A DNA stretch of 64,000 bases from Alphaproteobacteria bacterium (GCA_015062305.1 SUUX01000001.1:485-64484), one strand, 5' to 3'; shown: positions 2,963 to 50,121, counted from the stretch's first letter. The notes: generated by a model from the sequence alone, not told the origin. Made by a program: numbers and translations.

Positions 2963-3400
2963 ATGAAAAAGAAAAGAAATTTAGCAGTTGCCAGTGAAGA
3001 AAAGGCAATTGAACTGATGAAAGCTTTTTTGGCTTCGCAGCTTATTGAAACAGATCTCGAAAGAGATGAGGGTGTGGATCCAGCATCGGCTCCATATTTT
3101 ATTAAACTGGCATGGGTGAACAAAAACTGGGAAGGTGACGAATGGCTCGGTTGTCCATGCTTTGTGGCTGATTTCCACGGCAAGACGCATGATCAGAAAA
3201 AAGTACATGGTGTTGTGTACGTAAAAACGTTACCAACACAGACTACTGAAATTACCAAGATGCAGATTGTGGAAGATGAGCTGAGTTTGGATTTTGATTT
3301 CATTGAGAATGGAGATACATTCTCAATGCGAGACACTAAGTGTCGGTATCAAGATGAGAAATTTATCTTCAAAAACGGCGAGATTTCTCGTTTGGATTAA
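2963..3400 (+). CDS. hypothetical protein
   Basis: 145 aa ORF with a clean terminator hairpin downstream. No family recognised. Confidence 0.4.
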   Translation: MKKKRNLAVASEEKAIELMKAFLASQLIETDLERDEGVDPASAPYFIKLAWVNKNWEGDEWLGCPCFVADFHGKTHDQKKVHGVVYVKTLPTQTTEITKMQIVEDELSLDFDFIENGDTFSMRDTKCRYQDEKFIFKNGEISRLD

Positions 3401-9722: not shown

Positions 9723-10676
9723 CTATTTTTGTTCTTTTGGCAAGAACTTTTTTGAATAATGTCTGTTTTTTTTGCGAGGATTGTTGTTTGTATATTCAAA
9801 CACTTTTAATTCTCTAGGTTTTTGTTCTTTGGGTTGTTGAAAATCATCGAGGGCAGCCGTGATGACGGCACCAAAGATAACAGCAGCCCATACTAAATAT
9901 AGCCAAATTAACATTATGGGAATAATGGCAAGTGCGCCATAAAGAATATTGTATGTGTTTGTAGATATGAGGAAGGCGCCAAATGCTTTGCGTAATATAT
10001 AAAATAGTATTACGGCAATGGTGGCGCCAATAAAAGCGTGAAAAATATTTACTTTTTTGTTGGGTACCAAAACATATAGCAAAACTAGAGCCAGCGTGGT
10101 GAGAATGCTTGGAACAATAGCACTAAACATTAGGGCGCTACTAATAATGTTGTCGGGCATGAGGTTTTGAAGAGCGTACACATATCCTCTCAGCGAGAAA
10201 GCTGTTCCAAGCAAAAGTGGTCCGAGAGTGATAACTGTCCAATAAAGAGTGATTTTGGTTTTGATGCTTCTAGCTTTATATACTTTAAATATAAAGTTTA
10301 AGCTGTTTTCGATGGTTGATAGTAATAAGATTGCGGTGACTGCAATACCAATTACTCCGATAGTGGTTAGTTTGGCTGTAGCAGAAACAAAGTCGTTGAA
10401 GTATTGGCTGATATCTTGTTCGGCATCGGGCATCATGTTTTGTAATAATAGCATCTGAATTTGTTCTCTAATATCTGAAAACACCGGAAATGCCGAAAAA
10501 ATGGCCAAGCCAATAGCAATAAGTGGAACTATAGCAATAAGAGAAGTGTAACTGAGAGATGATGCTACACGTAGAATCATATCGCTTTTGACACGTTGTG
10601 TCAGAAAAATCATAAAATTTTTGGCTGTTTTTAGTTTGGTTTTGCAAAAATTACATTTTAAGTTATTCAGAAACAT
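9723..10676 (-). CDS. YihY/BrkB family inner membrane protein
   Basis: SSLSYTSLIAIVPLIAIGLAIFSAFP plus multiple TM helices typical of YihY. Confidence 0.65.
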   Translation of the reverse strand: MFLNNLKCNFCKTKLKTAKNFMIFLTQRVKSDMILRVASSLSYTSLIAIVPLIAIGLAIFSAFPVFSDIREQIQMLLLQNMMPDAEQDISQYFNDFVSATAKLTTIGVIGIAVTAILLLSTIENSLNFIFKVYKARSIKTKITLYWTVITLGPLLLGTAFSLRGYVYALQNLMPDNIISSALMFSAIVPSILTTLALVLLYVLVPNKKVNIFHAFIGATIAVILFYILRKAFGAFLISTNTYNILYGALAIIPIMLIWLYLVWAAVIFGAVITAALDDFQQPKEQKPRELKVFEYTNNNPRKKNRHYSKKFLPKEQK

Positions 10677-10794
10677 TCGTCACCTATAAAAAAATATGTT
10701 TACAAATTTGTTTGAATTTTATAAAAAACTAACTAATAATTCAAGTGATTTAATTGGATTGTTAATTGTGTGAAATTTAATTAAGGATATTGGT

Positions 10795-11625
10795 ATGACT
10801 GAAACAACAGCTCTTATGGCTGGTAAAAAAGGCTTAATTATGGGGCTTGCAAATGATAAGTCTATTGCATGGGGTATTGCTCAGGCTTTGAATGCTCATG
10901 GAGCTCAAATTGCGATTTCTTATCAAAATGAAGCTTTAGAAAAGAGAGTTCAACCCTTGGCTGCTCAATTAGATAAAGAACCTTTGTTGATAAAATGTGA
11001 TGTTTCGGATTCCGCAAGTGTTGAGGCTTGTTTTAAGGAATTGGGTGAAAAATGGGGCAAAATAGACTTTTTGGTTCATGCTATTGGTTTTTCTGATAAA
11101 AATCAGTTGAAAGGTCGTACAATAGACACAACTCGAGATAATTTTACCATGACAATGGAAATATCTTGTTTCTCTTTTATTGAGGCTTGTAAATTTGCAT
11201 CTCCAATTATGAATGAAGGCGGAAGTATTGTTACTCTGACTTATATGGGAAGTGAAAGAGTTTTGCCTAACTATAATATTATGGGTGTGGCAAAGGCTGC
11301 CTTGGAGGCTTCTGTTCGTTATGCGGCAACAGATATGGGTGCTCAGGGCGTGAGAGTGAATGCGGTTTCTGCAGGTCCGATAAAAACATTGGCTGCATCT
11401 GGAATTGGTGATTTTAGAAAAATATTGCATTGGAATGAGTTGAATGCTCCTTTGCAACGCAATATTACTCAAGAAGAGGTTGGTATGGTAACTTTGGGAT
11501 TGTTGTCTGCTTGTGGCAGCGGAATTACCGGAGAGGTTATCCATGTTGACTGCGGATATCATACGGTTGGTATGATGAATATTAATAAGACTAAGGAGCT
11601 TGGCGAATTTTTGGTTAGTGAATAG
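10795..11625 (+). CDS. fabI: enoyl-[acyl-carrier-protein] reductase (NADH) FabI
   Basis: GKKGLIMGLANDKSIAWGIAQAL N-terminus and the Y/K catalytic region. Terminator downstream. Confidence 0.9.
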   Translation: MTETTALMAGKKGLIMGLANDKSIAWGIAQALNAHGAQIAISYQNEALEKRVQPLAAQLDKEPLLIKCDVSDSASVEACFKELGEKWGKIDFLVHAIGFSDKNQLKGRTIDTTRDNFTMTMEISCFSFIEACKFASPIMNEGGSIVTLTYMGSERVLPNYNIMGVAKAALEASVRYAATDMGAQGVRVNAVSAGPIKTLAASGIGDFRKILHWNELNAPLQRNITQEEVGMVTLGLLSACGSGITGEVIHVDCGYHTVGMMNINKTKELGEFLVSE

Positions 11626-11641
11626 CCTTGCTTTAGCATTT

Positions 11642-11675
11642 AACAGCCTCCATTGAAATGGAGGCTGTTTTTGTT
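11642..11675 (+). terminator. rho-independent terminator
   Basis: cagcctccatt gaa atggaggctg stem followed by tttttgttt. Confidence 0.65.
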
Positions 11676-11759
11676 TGGTGAATATATAATTTGTGCTTGA
11701 TATCTGTTATATTTGTGTGCTAAAAACAATACAATATTTTGATATGATAGAGGTAAAAA

Positions 11760-12047
11760 ATGGCAATAGATAAGGAAACTGTTAAAAAAGTTGCTTTTTT
11801 GTCACGTTTAAAAATTGAAGAAGACAAAATTGAGGCAACAGAAAGGGAGTTTAATAAAATTTTGCAATGGATTGAACAATTGAGTGAGGTTAACACCGAT
11901 GGTGTAGAACCTTTGGTGTCGGTTAATGATTGTTCTTTGCAAATGCGACAAGATATTGTAAATGACGGTAATCTGGCAGAGCAGGTGTTGGCAAATGCAC
12001 CGATGAAAGAATATGGTTATTTTGGGGTTCCTAAAGTTGTAGAGTAA
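11760..12047 (+). CDS. gatC: Asp/Glu-tRNA(Asn/Gln) amidotransferase subunit C
   Basis: 95 aa. Sits immediately upstream of gatA-gatB in the conserved order. Confidence 0.85.
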
Positions 12048-12052
12048 AAAAA

Positions 12053-13510
12053 ATGACAGATTTAACAAAGTTAACTATTGCTCAAGCTAAAAAAGGCTTG
12101 AAGAATAAGGATTTTAGTGCAGTAGAATTGGTTGATGCTTATGCGGCTAAAATGAATGAAGGACGCAAATATAATGCTTATGTTTGTGAGACTGTAGAGC
12201 AAGCAAGAGAATTAGCTAAACGTAGCCAAGCCAAAATTGATGCAGGCGAAGGCGGAAATCTTGAAGGGATTCCTTTGGGAATCAAGGATTTGTTTTGTAC
12301 TAAAGGGATTGCAACGACAGCATGCTCGGAATTTTTGAAAGGTTTTGTTCCTCCTTATGAGTCAACAGTTAGTGCTAAGCTGTTGGCTGCTGGTGCAAGT
12401 TTTCTAGGCAAATTGAATTTGGATGAATTTGCAATGGGTGGAAGTAATGAAACCTCAGCTTTTGGTCCTGTGATAAACCCATGGAGTAAAGATGTTCCGT
12501 TGGTGGCAGGGGGATCTTCCGGTGGTTCGGCCGCAGCTGTGGCCGCCGGTATGTGTGCCGCTGCAACAGGTACGGATACCGGAGGTTCTATTCGCCAGCC
12601 TTCGTCATATTGTGGCGTGACAGGAATAAAGCCTACTTATGGACGTTGTTCTCGTTATGGAATTATTGCTTTTGCATCATCTTTGGATCAGGCTGGACCA
12701 ATTGCTAAAGATGTGCGTGATTGTGCTATTATGTTAAATTCTATGGCTGGTTATGATGCTAAAGATTCTACCTCTGTAAAAATAGATGTGCCGGATTTTG
12801 AAAAGTTTTTGGGTGAAGATATCAAGGGAATGAAGATTGGTATACCCAAAGAATATATGGTTGATGGTATGGATTCTGAACTGTCAGCTTATTGGAATAA
12901 GGCTGCGGAGATGCTAAAATCAAGAGGCGCAGAGCTGGTGGAAATATCTTTGCCTCATACAAAATATGCGTTGGCGGCTTATTATATTATTGCACCGGCT
13001 GAGGCTTCGGCAAATTTGGCCAGATATGATGGTTTGCGCTATGGAAATCGTGTGGAAGGTGATACTTTGGATGAAATGTATATCAACTCTCGTACAGCAG
13101 GTTTCGGAAAAGAAGTTAAAAGACGCATTATGGTCGGAACTTATGTGCTTTCGGCTGGTTATTATGATGCTTATTATGTAAAAGCTCAAAAAGTGCGCCG
13201 TCTGATTCGTAATGATTTTATGAATGCTTTTGAAAAATGTGATGTGATTTTGACACCAACTGCGCCGGTGGTGGCTTTTCCGATTGGAGATAAATCGATG
13301 CAAGAGAATCCGATAACGATGTGGTTGAATGATATCTTTACTGTGTCTGTTTCTTTGGCAGGATTGCCGGCAATGAGTTTGCCAATTGGTTTAAATAATG
13401 GTGGTTTGCCTTTGGGAATGCAAATAATTGGAAAAGCTTTTGATGAAGCCAGTGTGTTTAAGACTGCTTTTGCGCTGGAAAAAGATGCAAATTTTAAGGG
13501 GATGAGATAA
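12053..13510 (+). CDS. gatA: Asp/Glu-tRNA(Asn/Gln) amidotransferase subunit A
   Basis: Amidase signature [14 protein letters not shown]. 485 aa. Confidence 0.95.
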
Positions 13511-20356: not shown

Positions 20357-20578
20357 AATTATTTAGGATTATTTTACGAGGGCGCATCTCCTGATATGCT
20401 TCCTATTCCTCGAGTTAAAATTATTTGATAATAGTTATTTTATGGAGTGTTTTTTATCTGATTGTTTATAAAAAGTAAAGTTTTTTCGTTAAATAAAAAA
20501 ACTTTTACTAATTTGTAAAAAAGACTTGATTTATTTTTATTTGTGATTTATTTCTGTTTGCAGCTTTATTGGCGATAT

Positions 20579-20665
20579 GCGGCCATGGCGGAATTGGTAG
20601 ACGCGCAACCTTGAGGTGGTTGTGGGAGAACTCCCGTGAAGGTTCAAGTCCTTTTGGCCGCACCA
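20579..20665 (+). tRNA. tRNA-Leu (anticodon GAG)
   Basis: GCGGCCA...TGGCCGCACCA acceptor, long variable arm, anticodon loop CTTGAGGT, T-loop GGTTCAAGTCC, CCA encoded. Confidence 0.9.
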
Positions 20666-20754
20666 TTTATCTTGCTGAATAAAGCTTTTTTTGTATGTAT
20701 AGCTTTGCTATGAGCTGGTAACAACAAAGATTTATTAGTCTGAAAGGGGGAAAT

Positions 20755-40887: not shown

Positions 40888-40963
40888 GGGCGCTTAGCTC
40901 AGCTGGAAGAGCATCTCGTTTACACCGAGAGGGTCGGGAGTTCGAACCTCTCAGCGCCCACCA
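40888..40963 (+). tRNA. tRNA-Val (anticodon UAC)
   Basis: GGGCGCT...AGCGCCCACCA acceptor, D-arm AGCTCAGCTGGAAGAGC, anticodon loop TTTACAC, T-loop GGTTCGAACC. Confidence 0.9.
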
Positions 40964-40969
40964 ATTAGA
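40914..40969 (+). repeat. attL core: 3' part of tRNA-Val plus 6 bp, duplicated at attR
   Basis: A 56 bp stretch (tctcgtttacacc...ccaattaga) recurs exactly at 46826..46881. Confidence 0.8.
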
Positions 40970-41010
40970 GCCTTGAAATTAAAAAAGAATTTCGAGGCTT
41001 TTTTCTTTTT
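40968..41010 (+). terminator. hairpin plus T-run just inside the island after tRNA-Val
   Basis: agccttgaaatt...aatttcgaggct stem followed by tttttcttttt. Confidence 0.45.
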
Positions 41011-41029
41011 AAATTTTATGTAAAATAAA

Positions 41030-41051
41030 ATAGCTAACAAATAGCTAACAG
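41030..41051 (+). repeat. tandem 11-bp repeat ATAGCTAACAA/ATAGCTAACAG (island left end)
   Basis: The same tandem pair recurs at 46670..46691 near the int promoter. Confidence 0.6.
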
Positions 41052-41321
41052 AATTTAGAAAAAAGATAGTGTTTTTTATTCTTTACTTTTTTGTTTTTTA
41101 TTTATAGAGTCGTAATTGGATGGGATGATAACCCGTCTGGGGTGTGGTAACCTCTTACTTGACGTCTATGTGTAAAGACGAAACTTTTGCACGCTTTCTA
41201 GTTAATGAGACTGGAAGGCGGCAAAATACGCTATTTCAGTCAATATGCTGCACTATTCAAGTATAGTTACCAACTTCCAGTCGCCTCTCATCATGGCGGC
41301 TTTTTTTATAAGGAGTTGAGA

Positions 41322-41822
41322 ATGAAAAAAAGTTTGTTAGTGCTATTATGTTGTTTTTTATCATCATGTAGCTTAGAAAGCCGGATTAATTGGGCTAAGT
41401 ACTCTATAAATGTTGAGCGAGATACATTTAAGAAAACATTATTGGTTTGCACGGATGAGTATAAAACAGATGATTATATTAATGGAAGAAGTCCGGCAAC
41501 TTATGCTTTTTGCTATTATGAAGATAAAAACAATAAACATATTTATTCTATTACTGGAAAATATGTTTTACATCAACCTTTACCTATTGAATTTAATGAA
41601 GCTATTGATAAAAATGGCAATCAATTAAAAATAAAATCCACAGATGATAGGCGTTTAGGTGCTACAATAAATAATTTTGCAGTTCAGATTGAAGATAAAT
41701 ATATTGAAAATGTGACTGAAAGTATAGATGTTAGAATTTATGGTAAATACTCTTATACGTTACATATTCCTTATATTGATATTTTGGCATTAAAAGAAAA
41801 AATTAAAGAGGAAAATTTATAA
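41322..41822 (+). CDS. hypothetical lipoprotein (island cargo)
   Basis: AGGAG RBS. Signal peptide with lipobox CFLSSC. No family recognised. Confidence 0.45.
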   Translation: MKKSLLVLLCCFLSSCSLESRINWAKYSINVERDTFKKTLLVCTDEYKTDDYINGRSPATYAFCYYEDKNNKHIYSITGKYVLHQPLPIEFNEAIDKNGNQLKIKSTDDRRLGATINNFAVQIEDKYIENVTESIDVRIYGKYSYTLHIPYIDILALKEKIKEENL

Positions 41823-41963
41823 TAATATAAGGTTGAACAAAATTTATCTTTGAGGGGATATTTTGTTCAACCTTATTATGTTTTTTTGTTAAAATTACAT
41901 GTATTTAATTGAACGTGTTTTTATTGTTTATTTTCAATGTGTTATACTATAAAAATAAAACAT

Positions 41964-42788
41964 TTATCTTGAACACTGTTCTACTATGTTCAAGTATTTT
42001 TTTGAACATTTTGAATAAAAAACTTTAACACGTTGAATTAGATTTTGACTTATAAATAATAAAGTTAAAGCTTCATCTTGATTTTTTGTTATATATTCAA
42101 ACCATCCAGTTGGAGATGAAATGTTTTCAAATTTTATAATATTCTTATTCATTGGATGTTGTTTATGTTTTTTATTAAAAGCAATTTCTTTGAATATTTT
42201 TTTTAATGTTTTTATTTTTTGTGCGTTAAAATTTATAATTCCATGTATATGAAATAAATGTAAGTTATCTTTTATTGTGGTAGTTTTATCAAACTCAATA
42301 ACAAATAACCATTGAGGGTTGCAGTTAAATACATATTTATATTTATTTCTAAAACTCTCGCTAATATAATTGGTTAGTGTTTTAGAGGATTTATAGGCGT
42401 TATAAATATATTTGGTGGAAAATCTTAGTGTAAAGGCAATAAATTCATTAGCAGGAGCAAAACGTAATATGCACATTAGTTTATCAGATTTGTTAAGATT
42501 TCTCCATAATGGTAATTTATTATAATTATATATATTACTAACTGAAGAAGGATTATCAAAAACAACCTTATGAATACAGTTAGTGATTTGATAACTATGA
42601 GTTCTTACATCATTTGTCATTATATGAATTTTTGGTTTTTTTGCGAGTGTTTTACAAAAAAAATTACTTGATGTTTCATTTTCGTTATGTATTATGGTTT
42701 TAGATGATTTATGAAAGTTGTCTATTTCTAAGGCTTGCTGTTGGTGCAAAACAAAGCAAGCCTTTTCTTTTATTGTTCTTTTATACAT
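41964..42788 (-). CDS. putative rolling-circle/HUH-type replication initiator (Rep-like)
   Basis: HUH-like motif LHLFHIHGII and a YxxK-type motif (EYITK) about 40 aa downstream. Positioned after alpA, as in satellite/PICI replication modules. Confidence 0.35.
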   Translation of the reverse strand: MYKRTIKEKACFVLHQQQALEIDNFHKSSKTIIHNENETSSNFFCKTLAKKPKIHIMTNDVRTHSYQITNCIHKVVFDNPSSVSNIYNYNKLPLWRNLNKSDKLMCILRFAPANEFIAFTLRFSTKYIYNAYKSSKTLTNYISESFRNKYKYVFNCNPQWLFVIEFDKTTTIKDNLHLFHIHGIINFNAQKIKTLKKIFKEIAFNKKHKQHPMNKNIIKFENISSPTGWFEYITKNQDEALTLLFISQNLIQRVKVFYSKCSKKYLNIVEQCSR

Positions 42789-43008
42789 ATTTTACAACCT
42801 CGCAACTATTAGAAATGGCTGTTGATATGCGAGAAATTGCCCATTCTTGTAATTCTTTTTCATCATATACAACTGTTTTATATCCAAACTTATGATATTT
42901 AGGACCACCGCCAGTGGTAGCGTACTTACCAAGAGTTTTAGGACTTATTGTTAATCCAAATGTTGTCTTTAAGAAAATACAGGCTTCAGGTCTTGTGTAA
43001 TATTTCAT
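42781..43008 (-). CDS. AlpA-family phage regulatory protein / excisionase-like
   Basis: YTRPEACIFLKTTFGLTISPKTLGKYATTGGGPKYHKFG..VVYDEKELQEW fits the AlpA HTH pattern. Confidence 0.55.
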   Translation of the reverse strand: MKYYTRPEACIFLKTTFGLTISPKTLGKYATTGGGPKYHKFGYKTVVYDEKELQEWAISRISTAISNSCEVVKYV

Positions 43009-43101
43009 AATTTATCCTTTCTTTGTTTTTATAAGTTTTACAAAGTAAGGAATAGTCTATTTTGAAGTAAAGCATAAGTTAGGAAAAAAAATATTTTTTT
43101 C

Positions 43102-43860
43102 TTATTTTTCGTACGCTTTTTCTTTTTTATTATGATAATGTCGATAATCTGCAGATAAATGTCTACATCTATCATTACAGTATTTTTTATTACTTCTATA
43201 TAAGAAAAATTTATTACAACTATGACGTTCACATTGTTTTAAAATATGATTGTTTTCTAAATGTTTAAAAAATGTTTCGATAATGTTTAATAGTAAATGT
43301 TTACTTAAAGTGTCTTTTCTTGATGCCAAAATTTTTTGTATTTTAGGAAACAATGTATTTGCTGTTTTATCTTGGGGTTTAGACGAGTTTAAAATGTCAT
43401 TAAATATTTTTCCTAATTTTCCAATAGATATTGCTAATCCTATTGAGTAACTTCCATCAATAGCTTGATATTTAAGTAAATTATAAATTTGCTTATCAAG
43501 AGTATTAATTATTTCTCCCATTATTTGAATATTTTTAAAATTTGTTAGTAATTGACATATAAAAAAATAGGGAAAAATGTTATTTTCGTTTTGTATTCTA
43601 AATTTTAGATAATAGGAACGTTCTCTTTTAGTGTAGTCATCAGGAAAAAAACTTTTTTCTTCATCTGCATTAAAATTTTTAGATAATGAACATTTTATTG
43701 GATGTTTAACATAAGACATTGTCACAAACTCTAGAGTAACATTATATTTTATATTATTTTCATCTAACATTTCTGCAGATACAATATCCTTAAAAAGATA
43801 TATTCGGTTTGTATCTTGTTTTATAAGGTGGTTTTTTTTGTAAGCAACTATGTCATTCAT
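43102..43860 (-). CDS. hypothetical protein with C-terminal CGNR-type zinc-finger-like motif
   Basis: C-terminus CERHSCNKFFLYRSNKKYCNDRCRHLSADYRH resembles zf-CGNR (C..C..F.D.S.....WCS..CGNR). N-terminal 200 aa unassigned. Confidence 0.35.
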   Translation of the reverse strand: MNDIVAYKKNHLIKQDTNRIYLFKDIVSAEMLDENNIKYNVTLEFVTMSYVKHPIKCSLSKNFNADEEKSFFPDDYTKRERSYYLKFRIQNENNIFPYFFICQLLTNFKNIQIMGEIINTLDKQIYNLLKYQAIDGSYSIGLAISIGKLGKIFNDILNSSKPQDKTANTLFPKIQKILASRKDTLSKHLLLNIIETFFKHLENNHILKQCERHSCNKFFLYRSNKKYCNDRCRHLSADYRHYHNKKEKAYEK

Positions 43861-43862
43861 GA

Positions 43863-45371
43863 TTATCTCTTTGAATGCGTTTTTTTACAGTTTGGGGTAA
43901 ATGATAATTTTGCATATTGATAATTAATGGTGTTGCAAATAACATCTTTAATTCCTGTAGCATATCGTAAATCAGCGCCTTTGATGTCGGCATTGGTTAA
44001 AATTGCATTTGAAAAGTTGCTACATCTAAAATCTGCATTTTGTAAGTTTGCATTGGTAAAATTAGAATTGCTAAAATTAATATTAGAAGCTTGTATTTTT
44101 TTCAAATTACCATTTATAAATCGTTTATTAGTGTATTTACTTATTTGTTCTTTTTCGCAAATTCCACTCCATGTATTAAAAGAAATATTCTCAAGTGTTA
44201 TATTGCTTAGATGATAATTAGAAAAGTATATTGTGATAATAACAATATATATTGGTAAAATGGAATTCATTTTTGTTTTTTGGGGTATAAAGTGATATGA
44301 TAAAACACTTGTCACAACAATAAATAAGCTTAACATCCAAGTGGGTTTGTTAAATGATAAGAGTTTTGTTATGTTTGTACCAATATTGTTTATATCAATA
44401 AAAGTAGCTAAGGCTAATATTAACAATATTGAGGTTATAGGATGTATAGTATTTCCTGAGTGATTTATTTTGAATATAAAGAATACACCTAAAATCATTT
44501 GAAGTTCGTTTTCACTTAAATTTAAAAATGCAATATCAAAAAAGTATATGTGTAATATTCTGCTTAAGAATAGATATAAACAAATAAAGTCTAAGAATCG
44601 AAATAAAGCTATAGTGTGATTAGTTATTTCATTATAATCCAATTTTAAATTTTTATCCATATTTTGACTTTTGATATTACTAATTGGAAGTAATCCTTTA
44701 AAGTCTATTTGAAGTTCAGTTATCCATCTTAATAAAAAATACTTACTTAAAACGGTTGAAATTCTTTCACCATCTGGAAATATTACGGGTAAAGTTCTTA
44801 TCATTGCCATTATTTCGAGAGTTAATGGTATTAAAAATTTATCTAAGGCAAATACTATTATAATTCCAAAACATAAAAATGTTGTATAAGATACCATTCC
44901 TGTTAAATCAAAGAATGGATTTGGAATATTTATTTTTGTTCCTAAGAAAAAATCAGAATATGAGGCACTTAGTGCAAATAATATGTAGTAAATACAAATG
45001 ATACAGTAGAGAAGTGAGATTATTTTGTATTTTGAACTATGGTCGTTAATATATTCTATTTTTTGAGAATAAGAAAAAGGTAGTTTTGTTCCGTATAAAT
45101 TTGAAAAGCCAAAAGCATTAATACTAAGGTATTGAGCATTAATAAAATTACATTTTTGGATAATTGAATTTTCAAATTTTGTATTTGTGAGGTCACAGTT
45201 AGAAAAATCACAATTTTCAAATATACTATTATTTAAGTTCATATTAGATAAACAATCTTTTGTAAAAGAGCAATTTACTAATTTTAATTGTTTTCCAGTA
45301 ATGTTATTTGTAAGCCAATCAGAATGATTCTTATATAACTTTTCAAATTCTTTTTTGTTTATTTTTTTCAT
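43863..45371 (-). CDS. pentapeptide-repeat / polytopic membrane / pentapeptide-repeat protein
   Basis: N-terminal pentapeptide repeats (NCSFTKDCLSNMNLNNSIFENCDFSNCDLTNTKFENS), about 8 TM helices, then C-terminal repeats (ASNINFSNSNFTNANLQNADFRCSNFSNAILTNADIKGADL). Very AT-rich. Confidence 0.55.
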   Translation of the reverse strand: MKKINKKEFEKLYKNHSDWLTNNITGKQLKLVNCSFTKDCLSNMNLNNSIFENCDFSNCDLTNTKFENSIIQKCNFINAQYLSINAFGFSNLYGTKLPFSYSQKIEYINDHSSKYKIISLLYCIICIYYILFALSASYSDFFLGTKINIPNPFFDLTGMVSYTTFLCFGIIIVFALDKFLIPLTLEIMAMIRTLPVIFPDGERISTVLSKYFLLRWITELQIDFKGLLPISNIKSQNMDKNLKLDYNEITNHTIALFRFLDFICLYLFLSRILHIYFFDIAFLNLSENELQMILGVFFIFKINHSGNTIHPITSILLILALATFIDINNIGTNITKLLSFNKPTWMLSLFIVVTSVLSYHFIPQKTKMNSILPIYIVIITIYFSNYHLSNITLENISFNTWSGICEKEQISKYTNKRFINGNLKKIQASNINFSNSNFTNANLQNADFRCSNFSNAILTNADIKGADLRYATGIKDVICNTINYQYAKLSFTPNCKKTHSKR

Positions 45372-45375
45372 TTTA

Positions 45376-46635
45376 TTAAACCTCTAAAGCTTCTGCGATT
45401 TTTTTTGATATGGCATCGGCGGCATAAACTAGGCTTGCATCAACACTGTGACTGTAGCGGTTAGTTACGCCACCAAGTTTATGACCTAATAGTCCGGCAA
45501 TGGTTAATTCATTATAATTCATATCAGCGCCGACGCTTGCAAAACTATGTCTTAATGTGTGAAGGCATATATCTTTACTAATAAAGGGTGTTTTTTCTTG
45601 TTCTGGATGTTCATTTTTATAATCGGTAGGCAAACGATATATTTTATTAAAGATTTTTAATAAGCTAATAAGGTGTCCTGAGCCTCTAGTTGCCGGAAAT
45701 ACCCAATCATAATTATTATTTTGTTCTTTTATTTCTTCTAATAGTTTTTTTGCAGAGTATCCAAAAGGTCTTATTTGCGCTCCTGTTTTGGTGTCAGGAA
45801 AACGAAAACACTGATTTTTAAAGTCTACATAATCCCATTTGAGAGTTAATATCTCATTTTTTCTACAACCTGTTAATATTAAAAGTTTTAAGGCATTTAT
45901 AGCGGTGGTGCTACATAAATGCAATTCTTCAGCCGCTGTCAATGCCTTTCCAAATAATTTAATTTCATCAATAGTTAAAAATTCTTCTCTTTTGTTAGTT
46001 TTAGGCTTTTTTATTCCTAAAGCAGGATTCTCATTAATATAACCTCTTAATTTTGCAAAGGATAAAATACTACTGAGCATTTCAAGCGTACGCTTAGCAA
46101 TAGATTTTCCACCTTTTACATTTATAACACCTCTTTTTTTTGAGCTTTTAGCTATATATGCTGTGTCACCTTTAATAATAGATAATACCATTTTATCTAT
46201 ATGTTCTTTTTGTAGTTCTTTAACCGCCATGTTTCCTATTAATGGCTTAATATGGCGTTCTATTCTGCTTCTATCGTTTATTATAGTTGAATTTTTTTTA
46301 TTGTAAGTTGCTTCATCCATATAAATTTCGCATAGTTCAGTTATAGTAATAGCTTTTTTATTACCTGTTTTTTCTAATGCAGGGTCACCATGATTTAAGG
46401 TTATATCTGCTAATGTTTTTTGAGCTTTTTCTCTTGCCTGTTCAGGAGTTATTTTTCCAACTTTTCCTAATGTAAACATTTTTTGTTTACCAAATTGGTT
46501 TCTATACATAATTACCCAAGATTTACTTTTGGGTTGAATTCGTATACCAAAACCTTTTAAACTATCATCCCAAAATGTCTTTCCTATGTCTTTTTCTGTT
46601 ATTTTATCTATAAAACTTTTGTTTATTTTTACCAT
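45376..46635 (-). CDS. tyrosine-type site-specific integrase (P4-like, N-terminal arm-binding DUF4102-like)
   Basis: N-terminus ...KGFGIRIQPKSKSWVIMYR.. and C-terminal catalytic HTLRHSFAS...LLGHKLGGVTNRYSH (R..H..R..Y). Confidence 0.9.
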   Translation of the reverse strand: MVKINKSFIDKITEKDIGKTFWDDSLKGFGIRIQPKSKSWVIMYRNQFGKQKMFTLGKVGKITPEQAREKAQKTLADITLNHGDPALEKTGNKKAITITELCEIYMDEATYNKKNSTIINDRSRIERHIKPLIGNMAVKELQKEHIDKMVLSIIKGDTAYIAKSSKKRGVINVKGGKSIAKRTLEMLSSILSFAKLRGYINENPALGIKKPKTNKREEFLTIDEIKLFGKALTAAEELHLCSTTAINALKLLILTGCRKNEILTLKWDYVDFKNQCFRFPDTKTGAQIRPFGYSAKKLLEEIKEQNNNYDWVFPATRGSGHLISLLKIFNKIYRLPTDYKNEHPEQEKTPFISKDICLHTLRHSFASVGADMNYNELTIAGLLGHKLGGVTNRYSHSVDASLVYAADAISKKIAEALEV

Positions 46636-46669
46636 AATACTAGTGTTTCCAATGCTTGTAGATTAAAAA

Positions 46670-46691
46670 ATAGCTAACAAATAGCTAACAA
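46670..46691 (+). repeat. tandem 11-bp repeat ATAGCTAACAA x2 (island right end, 35 bp upstream of int start)
   Basis: Matches the tandem pair at 41030..41051. Confidence 0.6.
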
Positions 46692-46825
46692 ACTAGGGTA
46701 ATTTATGGTAAAAGTTATAATTGATTTTATTTTTAAAGTAAAGTATATTATTTTGTAAAAACAAATATATGAGTACAAAATAATCATTTATAAATCACCA
46801 TAAAAATATAGTAAAAAATATGGTT

Positions 46826-46881
46826 TCTCGTTTACACCGAGAGGGTCGGGAGTTCGAACCTCTCAGCGCCCACCAATTAGA
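46826..46881 (+). repeat. attR: 56 bp direct repeat of the tRNA-Val 3' end
   Basis: Exact copy of 40914..40969. Confidence 0.8.
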
Positions 46882-46882
46882 T

Positions 46883-46917
46883 AGAGTTTCGAATGATATT
46901 CGGAACTCTTTTTTTTT
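46883..46917 (+). terminator. displaced native tRNA-Val terminator
   Basis: agagtttcg aatgatatt cggaactct stem followed by ttttttttt. Confidence 0.55.
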
Positions 46918-47022
46918 ATGATTTTTTTGTTCGAACTCCCGGGAAGGGAGTTTGGGCTGAACTTTTAGGCAGACGGGAGTATGCCGGTGGCAAAGCCAAA
47001 AAGTGAAGCAGGCGAAGCCAGC

Positions 47023-47042
47023 CTCTCAGCGCCCACCAATTA
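47023..47042 (+). repeat. second partial att copy (20 bp of tRNA-Val 3' end)
   Basis: ctctcagcgcccaccaatta. Confidence 0.6.
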
Positions 47043-47082: not shown

Positions 47083-47106
47083 TTGATATGGGACTTGAGT
47101 AGCCTG

Positions 47107-47160
47107 TTCAGCGCTCACCAATTAAATAGAATTTCAGATGATATTCGGAACTCTTTTTTT
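47107..47160 (+). repeat. third, degenerate copy of att 3' end plus terminator
   Basis: ttcagcgctcaccaattaaatagaatttcagatgatattcggaactcttttttt is a diverged duplicate of 46863..46917. Confidence 0.55.
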
Positions 47161-47293
47161 TGCATAATATATACATTTTATCAGATTTTTGAGTTCTTGA
47201 AAAAGATATGAATGTTTATTACTTATTTTTTATATACTTTTGTAACTTGAACTAATCTTTGTACTATGTGTGAAAACAAGGATTGGAGTTGCT

Positions 47294-47725
47294 ATGATGA
47301 AGGTGTATTGTGATTCTAGTTTTGATGATAGGAGAGGCATTGCCGGAATTGGGGTAACAATTGTGGATGGAGAAAAAAGACGAACTTATTCTTCTTGGAT
47401 TAGAGCCAGAAGTAATAATGAGGGAGAATTGTTTGCAATCCACTTGGCAAGTATTTTGAGTGAAGGACGAGGGATTATATATACAGATTCTCAATGCGCA
47501 TTGACTTATATTAGTGGTTTGGTGCAAGACAAGCCCAGAACAAGAGAACAGTATTTGAACCACAAACATTGTGAATATTGGGCGAAGCAAATTAGGCGCA
47601 GAGGTGTGTCGGCAGAAAAAATAAAAGCACATCAAAAAACTTTTCAGGTTCATTCTATAGGGAACAGAATGGCTGATTTGTTGGCAAATGAAGGCAGAGC
47701 AAAGTTTTATGAACGCTTGCATTAA
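47294..47725 (+). CDS. rnhA: ribonuclease HI-type RNase H domain protein
   Basis: D/E/D/H/D motifs in order (VYCDSS, NNEGELFA, IYTDSQ, KAHQ, GNRMADLLA). Confidence 0.65.
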   Translation: MMKVYCDSSFDDRRGIAGIGVTIVDGEKRRTYSSWIRARSNNEGELFAIHLASILSEGRGIIYTDSQCALTYISGLVQDKPRTREQYLNHKHCEYWAKQIRRRGVSAEKIKAHQKTFQVHSIGNRMADLLANEGRAKFYERLH

Positions 47726-47772: not shown

Positions 47773-48249
47773 TTATTCGTAAGAAACGGTGATGGTTTTG
47801 TCTTCATTGATGATGAACTCTTGGCATGTTTTGTAATAAGATGGATTATTTTTTACGAGATGCTTGAATTCATCTATTGAAATAGCTGTCAGAGGCTTGC
47901 CATCTGTAGAAAATTTCTGCCAAAAAGAAGCTTCTTCTTTGTACAGACATAAGACGAAAATCTCTTTATCCATATTAAAGTAGATGTTCTCAATGTGCAA
48001 AGAATACTCCATATCGGGACACTCCAACAAAGGCAATACTTTGTTTATTAGCAAATTGTGCATTGGGTTGAGAGTGTAACATGGAGGCAATGTCATAGAT
48101 TCCAGTTCTACAGGAGGTTTTTGAATTTCTTTTGTAGCGGTTTCGGTGACGGCAGAAGTTTTGTGTTTTTGCTTGTTTCTATTAAATATTCCAAATCCGG
48201 CTAATAGCACCATCATAATGATGCAAATTACAATAATCAAACTTTCCAT
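47773..48249 (-). CDS. hypothetical membrane-anchored protein
   Basis: 158 aa with an N-terminal TM segment. No family recognised. Confidence 0.4.
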   Translation of the reverse strand: MESLIIVICIIMMVLLAGFGIFNRNKQKHKTSAVTETATKEIQKPPVELESMTLPPCYTLNPMHNLLINKVLPLLECPDMEYSLHIENIYFNMDKEIFVLCLYKEEASFWQKFSTDGKPLTAISIDEFKHLVKNNPSYYKTCQEFIINEDKTITVSYE

Positions 48250-48395
48250 AGTAATTGTGTTTTTTTGTTAATAATAAAATTTTGTCACATATTATGTCTA
48301 ATAAAATAAAATGTCAAGATATAAGTCGTTTGTAGTTGATAATGAAAAAAATGTATGTTATCTTGAATTAGATTTGTTTTTTGGGGAGAAAAAAT

Positions 48396-48644
48396 ATGGA
48401 AACTAAAGTTGCTGTCATCGCTATTATCGTAGAAAATAGAGATTCTGCTGAAAGTTTGAATGCAATTTTGAGTGAATATGGTGAATATATCATAGGGCGC
48501 ATGGGGATTCCATATAAGGCTAAAAAAATTAATATTATCAGTGTGGTTGTGGATGCACCGCATGATGTGATTAGTGCTATGGCCGGAAAAATCGGAAATT
48601 TGCAAGATGTTACTGTTAAAACGGCTTATTCCGGTTGCAATTAA
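48396..48644 (+). CDS. TM1266-family small protein (putative [FeFe]-hydrogenase system regulator)
   Basis: VAVIAIIVENRDSAESLNAILSEYGEYIIGRMGIPY...VISAMAGKIGNLQDVTVKT fits the TM1266 pattern. GGGGAG RBS. Confidence 0.6.
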   Translation: METKVAVIAIIVENRDSAESLNAILSEYGEYIIGRMGIPYKAKKINIISVVVDAPHDVISAMAGKIGNLQDVTVKTAYSGCN

Positions 48645-48693
48645 TTAAATATATTTAACTGACGGGAAAGAGTAATCTGACCCAAAAGATGAG

Positions 48694-50121
48694 GTGGAAA
48701 TGGTTTATGATGTTAAATCGGCCAAGGCCGAAGAATTTATTTGTCATGAAGAAATTTTGGACAGTTTGGCTTATGCAGAGGCTAATAAAGGAAATCTGCA
48801 ATTAATTGATGAAATATTAGAAAAAGCAAGGCAGCGCAAAGGATTGTTGCATCGAGAGGCATTGCTTTTGCTTGATTGTGAAGATGAAGAAAGAAATCAG
48901 CAAATTTTTGCTTTGGCAGAACAGATAAAAAAAGATTTTTATGGCAATAGAATTGTGTTGTTTGCACCGTTGTATTTGTCTAATTATTGCGTGAATGGTT
49001 GCGTTTATTGCCCGTATCATGCTAAGAATAAGAGAATCTTTCGAAAAAAAATGACTCAGGGCGAGATTCGACAAGAAGTGATTGCTCTGCAAGATATGGG
49101 TCATAAGAGATTGGCTCTGGAGGCCGGTGAGGATCCGGTTAATAATCCGATAGAGTATATTTTGGAATCTATCAAAACTATTTATTCCATTCAGCACAAA
49201 AATGGTGCAATTAGGCGAGTTAATGTAAATATTGCAGCAACAACAGTTGATAATTATCGCAAATTGAAAGATGCCGGAATTGGAACTTATATTTTGTTTC
49301 AAGAGACATATAATAAAGAATCTTATGAAAAATTGCATCCGACTGGTCCTAAGCATAATTATGCGTGGCATACAGAGGCTATGGATAGGGCTATGGAAGG
49401 TGGAATTGATGATGTGGGCTTGGGTGTGCTTTATGGTTTGGAATCTTATAGATATGAATTTGTGGGACAATTGATGCATGCCGAACATTTGGAAGCTGTG
49501 CATGGGGTGGGGCCACATACAATCAGTGTGCCAAGAATAAAGAGGGCAGATGATATTGATCCGGATAGTTTTGATAATGGAATAGATGATGATACTTTTG
49601 CAAAGATTATTGCTTGCATTAGAATTGCTGTGCCTTATACCGGAATGATTATTTCTACAAGAGAATCTCCAAAAGTTAGAGAAAGAGCCTTGCATTTAGG
49701 AGTGTCGCAAATTAGTGGAGCTTCTAAGACAAGTGTGGGCGGATATGCACATCCGGAATCGGAAGACGAAAATTCGGCCCAGTTTGATGTGAGCGATAAC
49801 AGAACTTTGGATGAAATCATCTATTGGTTGATGAAAATGGGGTATGTACCCAGTTTTTGTACGGCTTGTTATCGAGAGGGGCGTACAGGTGATAGGTTTA
49901 TGGAGCTTTGCAAAGCAAAGCAAATTCAAAACTGTTGTCATCCCAATGCATTGATGACACTGAAGGAATATTTGACAGACTATGCTTCTGAGGCAACCAA
50001 AGAGCTGGGACAGGCATTAATACAGTCAGAATTGGGTAATGTTCCGCAAGAAAAAGTGCGCGAGATTGTACAAAAGCATTTGATAGAAATAGAAAAAGGC
50101 AAAAGGGATTTCTATTTTTAA
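48694..50121 (+). CDS. hydG: [FeFe]-hydrogenase H-cluster radical SAM maturase HydG (tyrosine lyase)
   Basis: Radical SAM CVNGCVYC (CX3CX2C) and ThiH-like core. HydG-specific C-terminal CTACYREGRTGDRFMELCKAKQIQNCC (CX2CX~22C auxiliary cluster motif), which ThiH lacks. Confidence 0.75.
   Translation: MEMVYDVKSAKAEEFICHEEILDSLAYAEANKGNLQLIDEILEKARQRKGLLHREALLLLDCEDEERNQQIFALAEQIKKDFYGNRIVLFAPLYLSNYCVNGCVYCPYHAKNKRIFRKKMTQGEIRQEVIALQDMGHKRLALEAGEDPVNNPIEYILESIKTIYSIQHKNGAIRRVNVNIAATTVDNYRKLKDAGIGTYILFQETYNKESYEKLHPTGPKHNYAWHTEAMDRAMEGGIDDVGLGVLYGLESYRYEFVGQLMHAEHLEAVHGVGPHTISVPRIKRADDIDPDSFDNGIDDDTFAKIIACIRIAVPYTGMIISTRESPKVRERALHLGVSQISGASKTSVGGYAHPESEDENSAQFDVSDNRTLDEIIYWLMKMGYVPSFCTACYREGRTGDRFMELCKAKQIQNCCHPNALMTLKEYLTDYASEATKELGQALIQSELGNVPQEKVREIVQKHLIEIEKGKRDFYF

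Follow-up and report, generated by a model that had tools for sequence, protein, structure and literature searches.

A recently mobile six-gene island in tRNA-Val of an alphaproteobacterium, with a predicted HUH-type Rep protein and a structured RNA leader

We describe a small mobile element inserted in the 3′ part of a tRNA-Val gene on a 64,000-nt stretch of DNA from an alphaproteobacterium (Alphaproteobacteria bacterium, GCA_015062305.1 SUUX01000001.1:485-64484), hereafter the window, from whose first letter all coordinates are counted. The element has been mobile recently, as it is present or absent at the same site within one species. It is a small island with genes for an integrase, an excision factor and a replication protein, to which it adds an unannotated family of HUH-type Rep proteins and a new structured RNA. 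Taken as a whole, we think it probable that the island is an integrative element, intact and recently mobile, that would excise, be amplified by HUH-driven rolling-circle replication and be transferred with the aid of a helper. Small islands that bear an integrase and lack transfer genes are common, and few have a known way of spreading. With its six genes, exact ends and natural empty sites, this one offers a compact model for such islands in the poorly studied Alphaproteobacteria of the gut.

Integration into tRNA-Val and natural empty sites

The boundaries of the element are defined by the following features:

40888-40963, + strand: tRNA-Val (anticodon TAC), the integration target (ARAGORN; Rfam tRNA, 64.9 bits)
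40914-40969, + strand: attL, the first copy of a 56-nt core repeat, holding the 3′ 50 nt of tRNA-Val (100% identical to 46826-46881)
40967-41001, + strand: terminator hairpin supplied by the element to the rebuilt tRNA gene, after attL (terminator scan: 14-pair stem and T-run)
46826-46881, + strand: attR, the second 56-nt core copy, with the displaced 3′ part of the tRNA (repeat identity; partial tRNA match)
46883-46909, + strand: native tRNA-Val terminator, now apart from the tRNA gene, after attR (terminator scan: hairpin and T-run)

The direct repeat runs from the anticodon stem through the CCA and 6 nt beyond, and its two copies agree at 56 of 56 positions. A preliminary description of this DNA had proposed just such an exact 56 bp att duplication, made of the last 50 nt of the tRNA plus six, and it stands. 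The insert (40970-46881) comprises 5,912 bp and six genes, all of which are present as open reading frames (ORFs), as that description had listed them; its GC content is 0.20-0.31 between the att copies, against about 0.34-0.42 in the flanks, which bears out the earlier remark that the element is the more AT-rich. The two terminators are also where they had been placed. The hairpin after attR lies directly 3′ of the tRNA in two empty sites (L003 and L005; loci fetched for comparison carry the prefix L), and an equivalent of the hairpin after attL is present in three related elements (L020, L022 and L024).

The integration site lies between hupB and an RNase H gene, and we sought empty and occupied alleles among contigs that encode an identical HupB protein. 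Two of these contigs are occupied (L002, L004) and three are empty (L003, L005, L010), with the attB of L005 at 1007-1130. When the insert (40970-46881) is removed from the window, the reconstructed junction matches L005 at 417 of 418 bases, and the left flank alone matches it at 638 of 639; this agreement with an empty-site allele is far beyond chance. The empty tRNA-Val site that the preliminary description had suggested seeking in relatives thus exists within the same species. The element itself recurs in six other contigs from different samples, with 2999-3000 of the 3000 compared bases identical. Examples of samples with the element are ERZ27248314, ERZ27248306, JGI 3300018878 and 3300018494, and SRR7032241. 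Both hallmarks of a site-specific tRNA integrative element, tRNA-derived repeats at the ends and an empty site in relatives, are therefore found here. Insertion occurred into the 3′ part of tRNA-Val by site-specific recombination, with the element's own copy of the last 50 nt rebuilding the tRNA, and its presence or absence within one species bears the mark of a recent insertion or excision by such recombination.

These observations bear on the idea that the island is a fixed and decaying islet or prophage remnant, no longer mobile, whose repeats are relics and whose genes are drifting. Such decay would agree with the lack of a detected circular form and with the fact that most of the genes have no database annotation. 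On the other side, the repeats are exact, all ORFs are intact, the catalytic residues are kept and the element is polymorphic between near-identical flanks; the same gene set, moreover, occurs in other species at 65-88% protein identity with its motifs conserved. We consider decay very improbable.

Integrase, arm-type sites and excision factor

The recombination functions map to four features:

41029-41050, + strand: two tandem copies of the 11-mer AATAGCTAACA near attL, candidate arm-type site (exact-copy count)
42781-43008, - strand: winged-helix excision factor/regulator of the AlpA/RdfS type, 75 amino acids (aa) (family profile), overlapping the start of rep by 8 nt
45376-46635, - strand: tyrosine integrase of 419 aa with an N-terminal arm-binding domain (Pfam, PHROG, catalytic residues)
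46669-46690, + strand: second tandem pair of AATAGCTAACA, candidate arm-type site on the integrase/attR side (exact-copy count)

The integrase matches Arm-DNA-bind_3, Phage_int_SAM_3 and Phage_integrase in Pfam at 51.6, 33.7 and 61.7 bits, all above their cut-offs, and phrog_1 at 1.7e-63; its catalytic set (R258, H359, R362, H385 and Y394) is complete. The earlier assignment to the P4 type is correct for the domain architecture and does not extend to close kinship: identity to IntA of E. coli is 20%, so "P4-type" is a label of architecture. Exact copies of AATAGCTAACA number four in the whole window, and all four lie in the two tandem pairs. The same layout of tandem pairs recurs in L024 with a different 11-mer, as would be expected if these candidate arm sites co-evolve with their integrase.

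The 75-aa protein had been called an AlpA-family regulator. On its own it falls below the Pfam cut-offs (HTH_17, 17.6 bits against a cut-off of 27; Phage_AlpA, 15.6 against 21), and the name holds at the level of the family: six of seven orthologues match HTH_17 (best 1.6e-9), and the family profile matches RdfS (8dgl, 2e-7) and AlpA (8c3t, 5e-3). By these profiles we assign it to the AlpA/RdfS-type factors.

A new family of HUH-type Rep proteins and a candidate origin

Two features form the putative replication module:

41827-41876, no strand assigned: hairpin with a perfect 17-bp stem and a 16-nt loop at 41844-41859, where the lipoprotein and rep genes converge (sequence)
41964-42788, - strand: HUH-type Rep-like protein of 274 aa, with E165, H180-x-H182 and Y232-x-x-K235 (family motifs, predicted fold)

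Relatives of the Rep-like protein are distant from it. A word-indexed protein search returned two close homologues, or four with a profile, and an exhaustive profile search recovered 38 cluster representatives at 20-33% identity. In an alignment of 35 sequences H180, H182, G183, W229 and Y232 are invariant, and conservation reaches at least 90% at S124, P158 and K235. The family shows the three classical Rep motifs, namely the β-strand 'AFTLRFS', 'HxHG' and 'GWxxYxxK'. The profile comparison suggested in the preliminary description gave a divided answer, with no match to Rep_1, Rep_trans or Phage_CRI among the 35 sequences and weak matches to the Pfam family REP_ORF2-G2P (PF23343) in 13 of the 35 (best 1.1e-4). 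A sequence-profile search of the PDB with the Rep found nothing.

The structure was modelled from the 35-sequence alignment (pLDDT 80), in place of a three-sequence model that was unusable (pLDDT 38); an N-terminal region of about 55 residues is of low confidence (pLDDT below 50). The best matches of the model in BFVD are replication proteins of Microviridae, of CRESS-like viruses and of inoviruses, with moderate scores, and the replication protein of a Vibrio cholerae filamentous phage stands at rank 11. Overall the predicted fold best fits HUH nucleases, including parvovirus NS1/AAV Rep and RepB of pMV158. Motifs, profile and predicted fold agree, and on these grounds we file the protein as a new, unannotated family in the HUH superfamily; the invariant HxH and YxxK motifs, the weak REP_ORF2-G2P matches and the HUH-like model all argue for the HUH (HIH) and YxxK motifs that had been read from the window alone. 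Placement in PF11726 (YagK/YfjJ) was rejected, as an hhalign comparison with E. coli YfjJ was not significant.

The affinities of the Rep raise the question of a filamentous phage origin. RS1 and TLC of Vibrio cholerae contain little beyond a Rep of the G2P/Cri type and regulators, and use XerCD. The element could be a comparable integrated satellite of an inovirus-type phage, or a rolling-circle plasmid, equipped with a private tyrosine integrase. The one Pfam affinity of the Rep family (REP_ORF2-G2P) and the Vibrio cholerae protein among its structural matches speak for this origin, as do the small size of the element and its lack of structural genes. However, no inovirus gene, such as one for a coat protein or a Zot-like assembly ATPase, was seen among the ORFs inspected in the 64 kb window or in the related loci, nor were relatives found in phage or plasmid collections, and we regard this origin as distinctly unlikely.

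At the position just after rep that the 41827-41876 hairpin occupies, hairpins are also present in L033/L038, L024 and L026. Their stems are wholly different and their loops are similar, reading in the sense of rep ATCCCCTCAAAGATAA in the window and GGACCGYCAAGAGTCAA in the hairpins of the relatives. A similar loop on a varying stem would fit the nick site of a Rep, which makes 41827-41876 a candidate rolling-circle origin.

A structured RNA leader

Between attL and the lipoprotein gene lies a leader that is absent from the preliminary description, as are the arm sites:

41107-41317, + strand: RNA leader of some 200 nt, structured into seven helices, with a terminator at about 41279-41307 (covariation, folding)

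The region has about 43% GC inside an element of 25% GC. The RNA is kept in L020, L022, L024, L026, L028, L033 and L038, so that, counting the window, eight elements with a Rep contain it; it also occurs at no fewer than nine further metagenome loci. Scanning metagenome contigs with a gapped pattern brought in 15 loci, and a covariance model found a further divergent copy in L026 (97 bits) that the pattern had missed. We left L035 out of the alignments, since its sequence looked unlike the other copies; the covariance model later gave no match to it (E up to 1).

Over 17 distinct sequences, 97.7% of cells in the seven helices are paired and 26 of 49 pairs show compensatory changes, values reached by 0 of 500 shuffles; these figures come from an alignment fitted to the model, in which the search pattern had fixed two 11-mers. 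Sliding the partners by 1-3 columns lowers the number of compensated pairs to 3-10. The window sequence alone folds alike (-68.9 kcal/mol; minimum free energy z = -5.98). We consider the covariation sufficient for a credible new class of cis-regulatory RNA. A comparison of 41107-41317 with Rfam 15 returned nothing at gathering thresholds and, at E up to 10, weak and unrelated matches only.

At the 3′ end of the RNA stands an intrinsic terminator; the ribosome-binding site and then the start codon of the lipoprotein come after it. An alternative 9-bp helix, GACUGGAAG with CUUCCAGUC, would form at the expense of helix 6, of the terminator and of the base of the closing helix. This alternative helix is 98% paired and four of its positions show compensatory changes; L026 replaces it with a different, perfect 10-bp complement. 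Such mutually exclusive predicted pairings are the design of a terminator/antiterminator switch, a design that makes the function of the RNA directly testable. We hypothesize that the leader most likely gates transcription of the lipoprotein gene in response to a signal.

The genes found 3′ of the RNA copies are heterogeneous, and include lipoproteins, small membrane proteins, a methyltransferase, HsdM and proteins with a weak prepilin-methylation motif. The motif always faces the downstream gene, complete with terminator and ribosome-binding site, and several copies sit in loci that have no Rep within 7-14 kb. Because copies occur with no Rep in reach, we read the RNA as a portable leader; that it should serve as the origin for the Rep is unlikely, given that Rep-less loci carry the motif and that it always stands ahead of a gene.

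A weak match that preserves the architecture (27 bits) was also observed in L022 at 20466-20676 (- strand), upstream of a chromosomal OMP_b-brl/OmpA-like gene, so the RNA class may also regulate envelope genes of the host.

A family of related elements

The element belongs to a small and so far undescribed family in uncultured, mostly gut-associated Alphaproteobacteria. L020 comes from another species and carries all six genes at tRNA-Val, where 52 nt are duplicated. The element in L022 is the same minus the pentapeptide gene; it measures 4.8 kb and likewise sits at tRNA-Val with a duplicated core of 52 nt. More distant is L024, in a metagenome-assembled genome of a different alphaproteobacterium, where an 8.8 kb element occupies tRNA-Val(GAC) with a duplication of about 60 nt; its proteins are 47% (integrase), 48% (excision factor), 27% (zinc-ribbon protein) and about 29% (Rep) identical to those of the window. 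In five further loci (L025, L026, L028, L033 and L038) the Rep is paired with an integrase, an HTH_17 protein or both, and the cargo includes Fic, RhuM, type I restriction-modification and reverse transcriptase genes.

The core of the family thus consists of integrase, Rep, excision factor and zinc-ribbon protein, together with a gene for a small envelope protein under probable control of the RNA. Next to the integrase is a variable cargo slot, filled here by the pentapeptide protein and elsewhere by Fic, RhuM, restriction-modification or unannotated genes. L024 also holds a small lipoprotein and a cytosine methyltransferase/restriction pair. In its interval 9750-12900, from the core genes to attL, we observed a fragment resembling Vsr, an ORF like that of a cytosine-5 methyltransferase and, next to it, an ORF of 378 aa that may encode a restriction enzyme, labels that come from reading the ORF translations. 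This cargo suggests a second slot able to hold defence genes.

The remaining genes of the element are these:

41322-41822, + strand: lipoprotein of 166 aa (lipobox LSSC), directly 3′ of the RNA leader (ORF; signal/lipobox sequence)
43102-43860, - strand: core protein of 252 aa whose C-terminal part holds a Cys4 zinc ribbon that weakly resembles CGNR (kept in L020, L022 and L024)
43863-45371, - strand: accessory membrane protein of 502 aa with pentapeptide repeats at both ends (Pfam Pentapeptide, 58.4 bits; hydropathy)

The lipoprotein is kept in L020 and L022 and has no match in Pfam, PHROG or NCBIfam. The preliminary description had counted two cargo genes. This is right for the 502-aa pentapeptide protein, which is cargo because it is missing from the L022 element; the 252-aa zinc-ribbon protein is kept in the relatives and is for that reason core (the match to its L024 counterpart has an E-value of 2e-10). 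The resemblance of the latter to zf-CGNR is sub-threshold and seen in three of four members, and a search of the PDB found no relative. Residues 115 to 365 of the pentapeptide protein include about 6-7 hydrophobic segments. A role in Hailong-like defence (HalA) was rejected for this protein, as the NCBIfam match is confined to the repeats and scores 29 bits where the cut-off is 250; PADLOC gave no defence-system match for any of the six element proteins.

How the element may spread

We propose that the 75-aa AlpA/RdfS-type protein would direct excision of the element to a circle, and that the HUH-type Rep would start rolling-circle amplification of this circle by a nick made probably in the conserved loop of the 41827-41876 hairpin, just downstream of rep. 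Searches of the window proteins against Pfam, PHROGs and NCBIfam found no capsid, packaging or conjugation genes in the element, and a helper would therefore be needed for movement from cell to cell. By analogy with known minimal satellites we slightly favor a phage helper over a conjugative one, with packaging of rolling-circle concatemers, and we hypothesize that the element is a satellite of this minimal kind.

Several results weigh against this proposal. The excised circular form that the preliminary description had suggested searching for was not found: exact and degenerate patterns for the circular attP junction were absent from the fetched loci and from JGI metagenome contigs. The viral contigs of IMG/VR contain neither a relative of the Rep nor a copy of the RNA motif, and tblastn found nothing in phage records and nothing in 72,556 plasmids. 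The missing attP junction and viral-contig copies are uninformative on induction or packaging by a helper phage. No data point to any particular helper. The Rep-like protein of the window itself has no match in Pfam (E up to 1), PHROGs, NCBIfam or PADLOC, and the 41827-41876 hairpin could possibly be a plain bidirectional terminator. Because the Rep family is unannotated by current domain libraries, similar elements have probably been missed by finders that look for primases or known Reps.

A serious rival to the phage-borne route is conjugative mobilization. Here the HUH protein would be a relaxase that nicks an origin of transfer (oriT) in the 41827-41876 hairpin, and a conjugative element in the same cell would transfer the single strand with no phage involved, making the island an integrative mobilizable element. 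Rep-like HUH proteins are reported to act as relaxases in some integrative elements (for example PMC5357655, PMC6499999). No phage-related gene was found in the element (Pfam, PHROGs) and no copy in viral collections, and the best solved relative of the excision factor is RdfS, from a conjugative element. Against mobilization, no gene for a coupling protein, a MobC-like protein or a type IV secretion system occurs in or adjoining the element and no Pfam match is to a MOB family, while the affinities of the Rep by fold and Pfam are to REP_ORF2-G2P, Microviridae, parvovirus and pMV158 RepB proteins rather than to MOB relaxases. The 72,556 plasmids, too, contain no match. We place mobilization among the unlikely readings, although it is the one that we take most seriously beside helper-phage transfer.

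A separate observation concerns the surroundings of the island in other contigs, where a large protein with a PcfJ-like domain (912 to 1038 aa) is encoded a few kb away (L011 1-2617, L013 1-2617 and L020 1-2323); in L011 and L013 its gene lies beyond the HydG-like gene described below. As this family is named after a protein of conjugative plasmids, it might hint at conjugative machinery in the neighborhood.

Returning to helper-phage transfer, a more ambitious version of it can be put forward tentatively. The element may be the first example of a lineage, hitherto undescribed, of minimal satellites that replicate by rolling circle in uncultured gut Alphaproteobacteria, with a private HUH Rep, a hairpin origin and concatemers spread by phage, and with a leader RNA of a new riboswitch class or antitermination type that acts as a portable switch for envelope and defence genes. 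We see this fuller picture as possible, and rather less probable than not.

Surroundings of the integration site

Downstream of attR, the segment 46910-47161 contains two further partial copies of the tRNA 3′ end, at 47022-47042 (21/21) and 47104-47124 (81%), each followed by a terminator-like hairpin. A GC-rich segment of about 100 nt (46921-47021) lies between the first pair of copies and starts with an inverted piece of the T-arm. These units of about 163 nt vary in number by strain: the window has two extra partial copies, L005 has one, and L003 has two with an assembly gap of Ns between them. The units have the look of scars left by earlier integrations that used a shorter core, or of a tiny repeat element.

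L001 (10524-11401; GCA_045538005.1) encodes the identical HupB and tRNA-Val and has wholly different DNA after the tRNA, namely a different terminator and then an unannotated ORF of 274 codons that runs to the contig end. The DNA downstream of tRNA-Val is therefore a hot spot whose variability goes beyond this element.

In the right flank are a stand-alone RNase H-like gene (47270-47725, + strand; 56 bits) and a gene for a 158-aa protein with an N-terminal hydrophobic segment (47773-48249, - strand). Both are also found at the empty sites and are on that account host genes, not part of the island. Further on, just downstream of the island at 48381-50121 (+ strand), are a TM1266-like iron-only hydrogenase regulator and a radical-SAM protein of 475 aa. 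In the occupied contigs the latter has Radical_SAM and BATS domains, and we take it to resemble HydG, the maturase of [FeFe]-hydrogenase. Genes of this hydrogenase type are consistent with an anaerobic alphaproteobacterium of the gut type.

Comparison with known systems

The preliminary description had called the element satellite/PICI-like. The earlier reading is borne out as a whole, and this label describes a resemblance: the element is like minimal satellites (PICMI, VEIME), and the features that define PICIs and PICMIs are incomplete or absent. PICIs of the SaPI/EcCI kind measure 10-15 kb, against 5.9 kb here, and searches with Pfam, PHROGs and NCBIfam found no primase, terS or capsid/redirection gene. 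P4-like satellites are also a poor fit, with no psu, sid, delta or alpha primase-helicase gene detected (PHROG, Pfam).

The closest likeness in size and plan is to the PICMIs (phage-inducible chromosomal minimalist islands) of Vibrionaceae. PICMI115 is 6.1 kb long and has six genes, among them int, alpA and a replication gene, and its rolling-circle concatemers are carried in helper capsids (PMC10803314). Element and PICMI alike are about 6 kb in length with six genes, including a tyrosine integrase, an AlpA-type factor and a single replication gene; capsid and packaging genes are missing from the two, their accessory genes vary, and each has been proposed to be amplified by rolling circle. 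However, the PICMI core of int, alpA and prim at a site next to fis is only partly represented: int and an alpA-like gene are present and the primase is absent, its place being taken by a HUH-type Rep with no sequence relationship to it, and the site is tRNA-Val. In addition, the hosts of PICMIs are Vibrionaceae and those of our element uncultured Alphaproteobacteria.

VEIMEs (virion-encapsidated integrative mobile elements) are elements of marine bacteria, including groups from Pelagibacter and other Alphaproteobacteria, which are small, integrase-bearing and capsid-less, and are thought to be packaged as rolling-circle concatemers; their cargo includes restriction-modification and abortive-infection-like genes (PMC9618062). 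They are defined by recovery from virions, whereas the element described here comes from genome sequence and has no match in IMG/VR.

An architectural parallel is offered by the intA-alpA-yfjI-yfjJ module of CP4-57 in E. coli K-12, in which, as in our element, an arm-binding integrase and AlpA are followed by a HUH protein of the REP_ORF2-G2P type. We call it a parallel because YfjJ carries the REP_ORF2-G2P domain (29.9 bits for PF23343) and homology is not detectable: the Rep profile does not match YfjJ significantly and aligns to the HUH strand only, and the integrases are 20% identical. CP4-57 is also much larger (about 22 kb) and lies at ssrA, and YfjJ belongs to PF11726, to which the window Rep does not.

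With HUH initiators in general (parvovirus NS1/AAV Rep, pMV158 RepB, Reps of Microviridae and CRESS viruses, inovirus G2P) the Rep shares the HxH metal motif, the catalytic YxxK motif and, in the predicted structure, a central sheet that helices flank. Sequence similarity to them is near or below detection, and the window Rep has no helicase domain.

Finally, the leader is like terminator/antiterminator riboswitches in its length of about 200 nt and in having closing helices and a terminator that share bases with an alternative helix, with all three pairings backed by compensatory changes. It is unlike them in that it stands ahead of accessory genes of mixed kinds, not of members of one pathway, and in having no match in Rfam 15.

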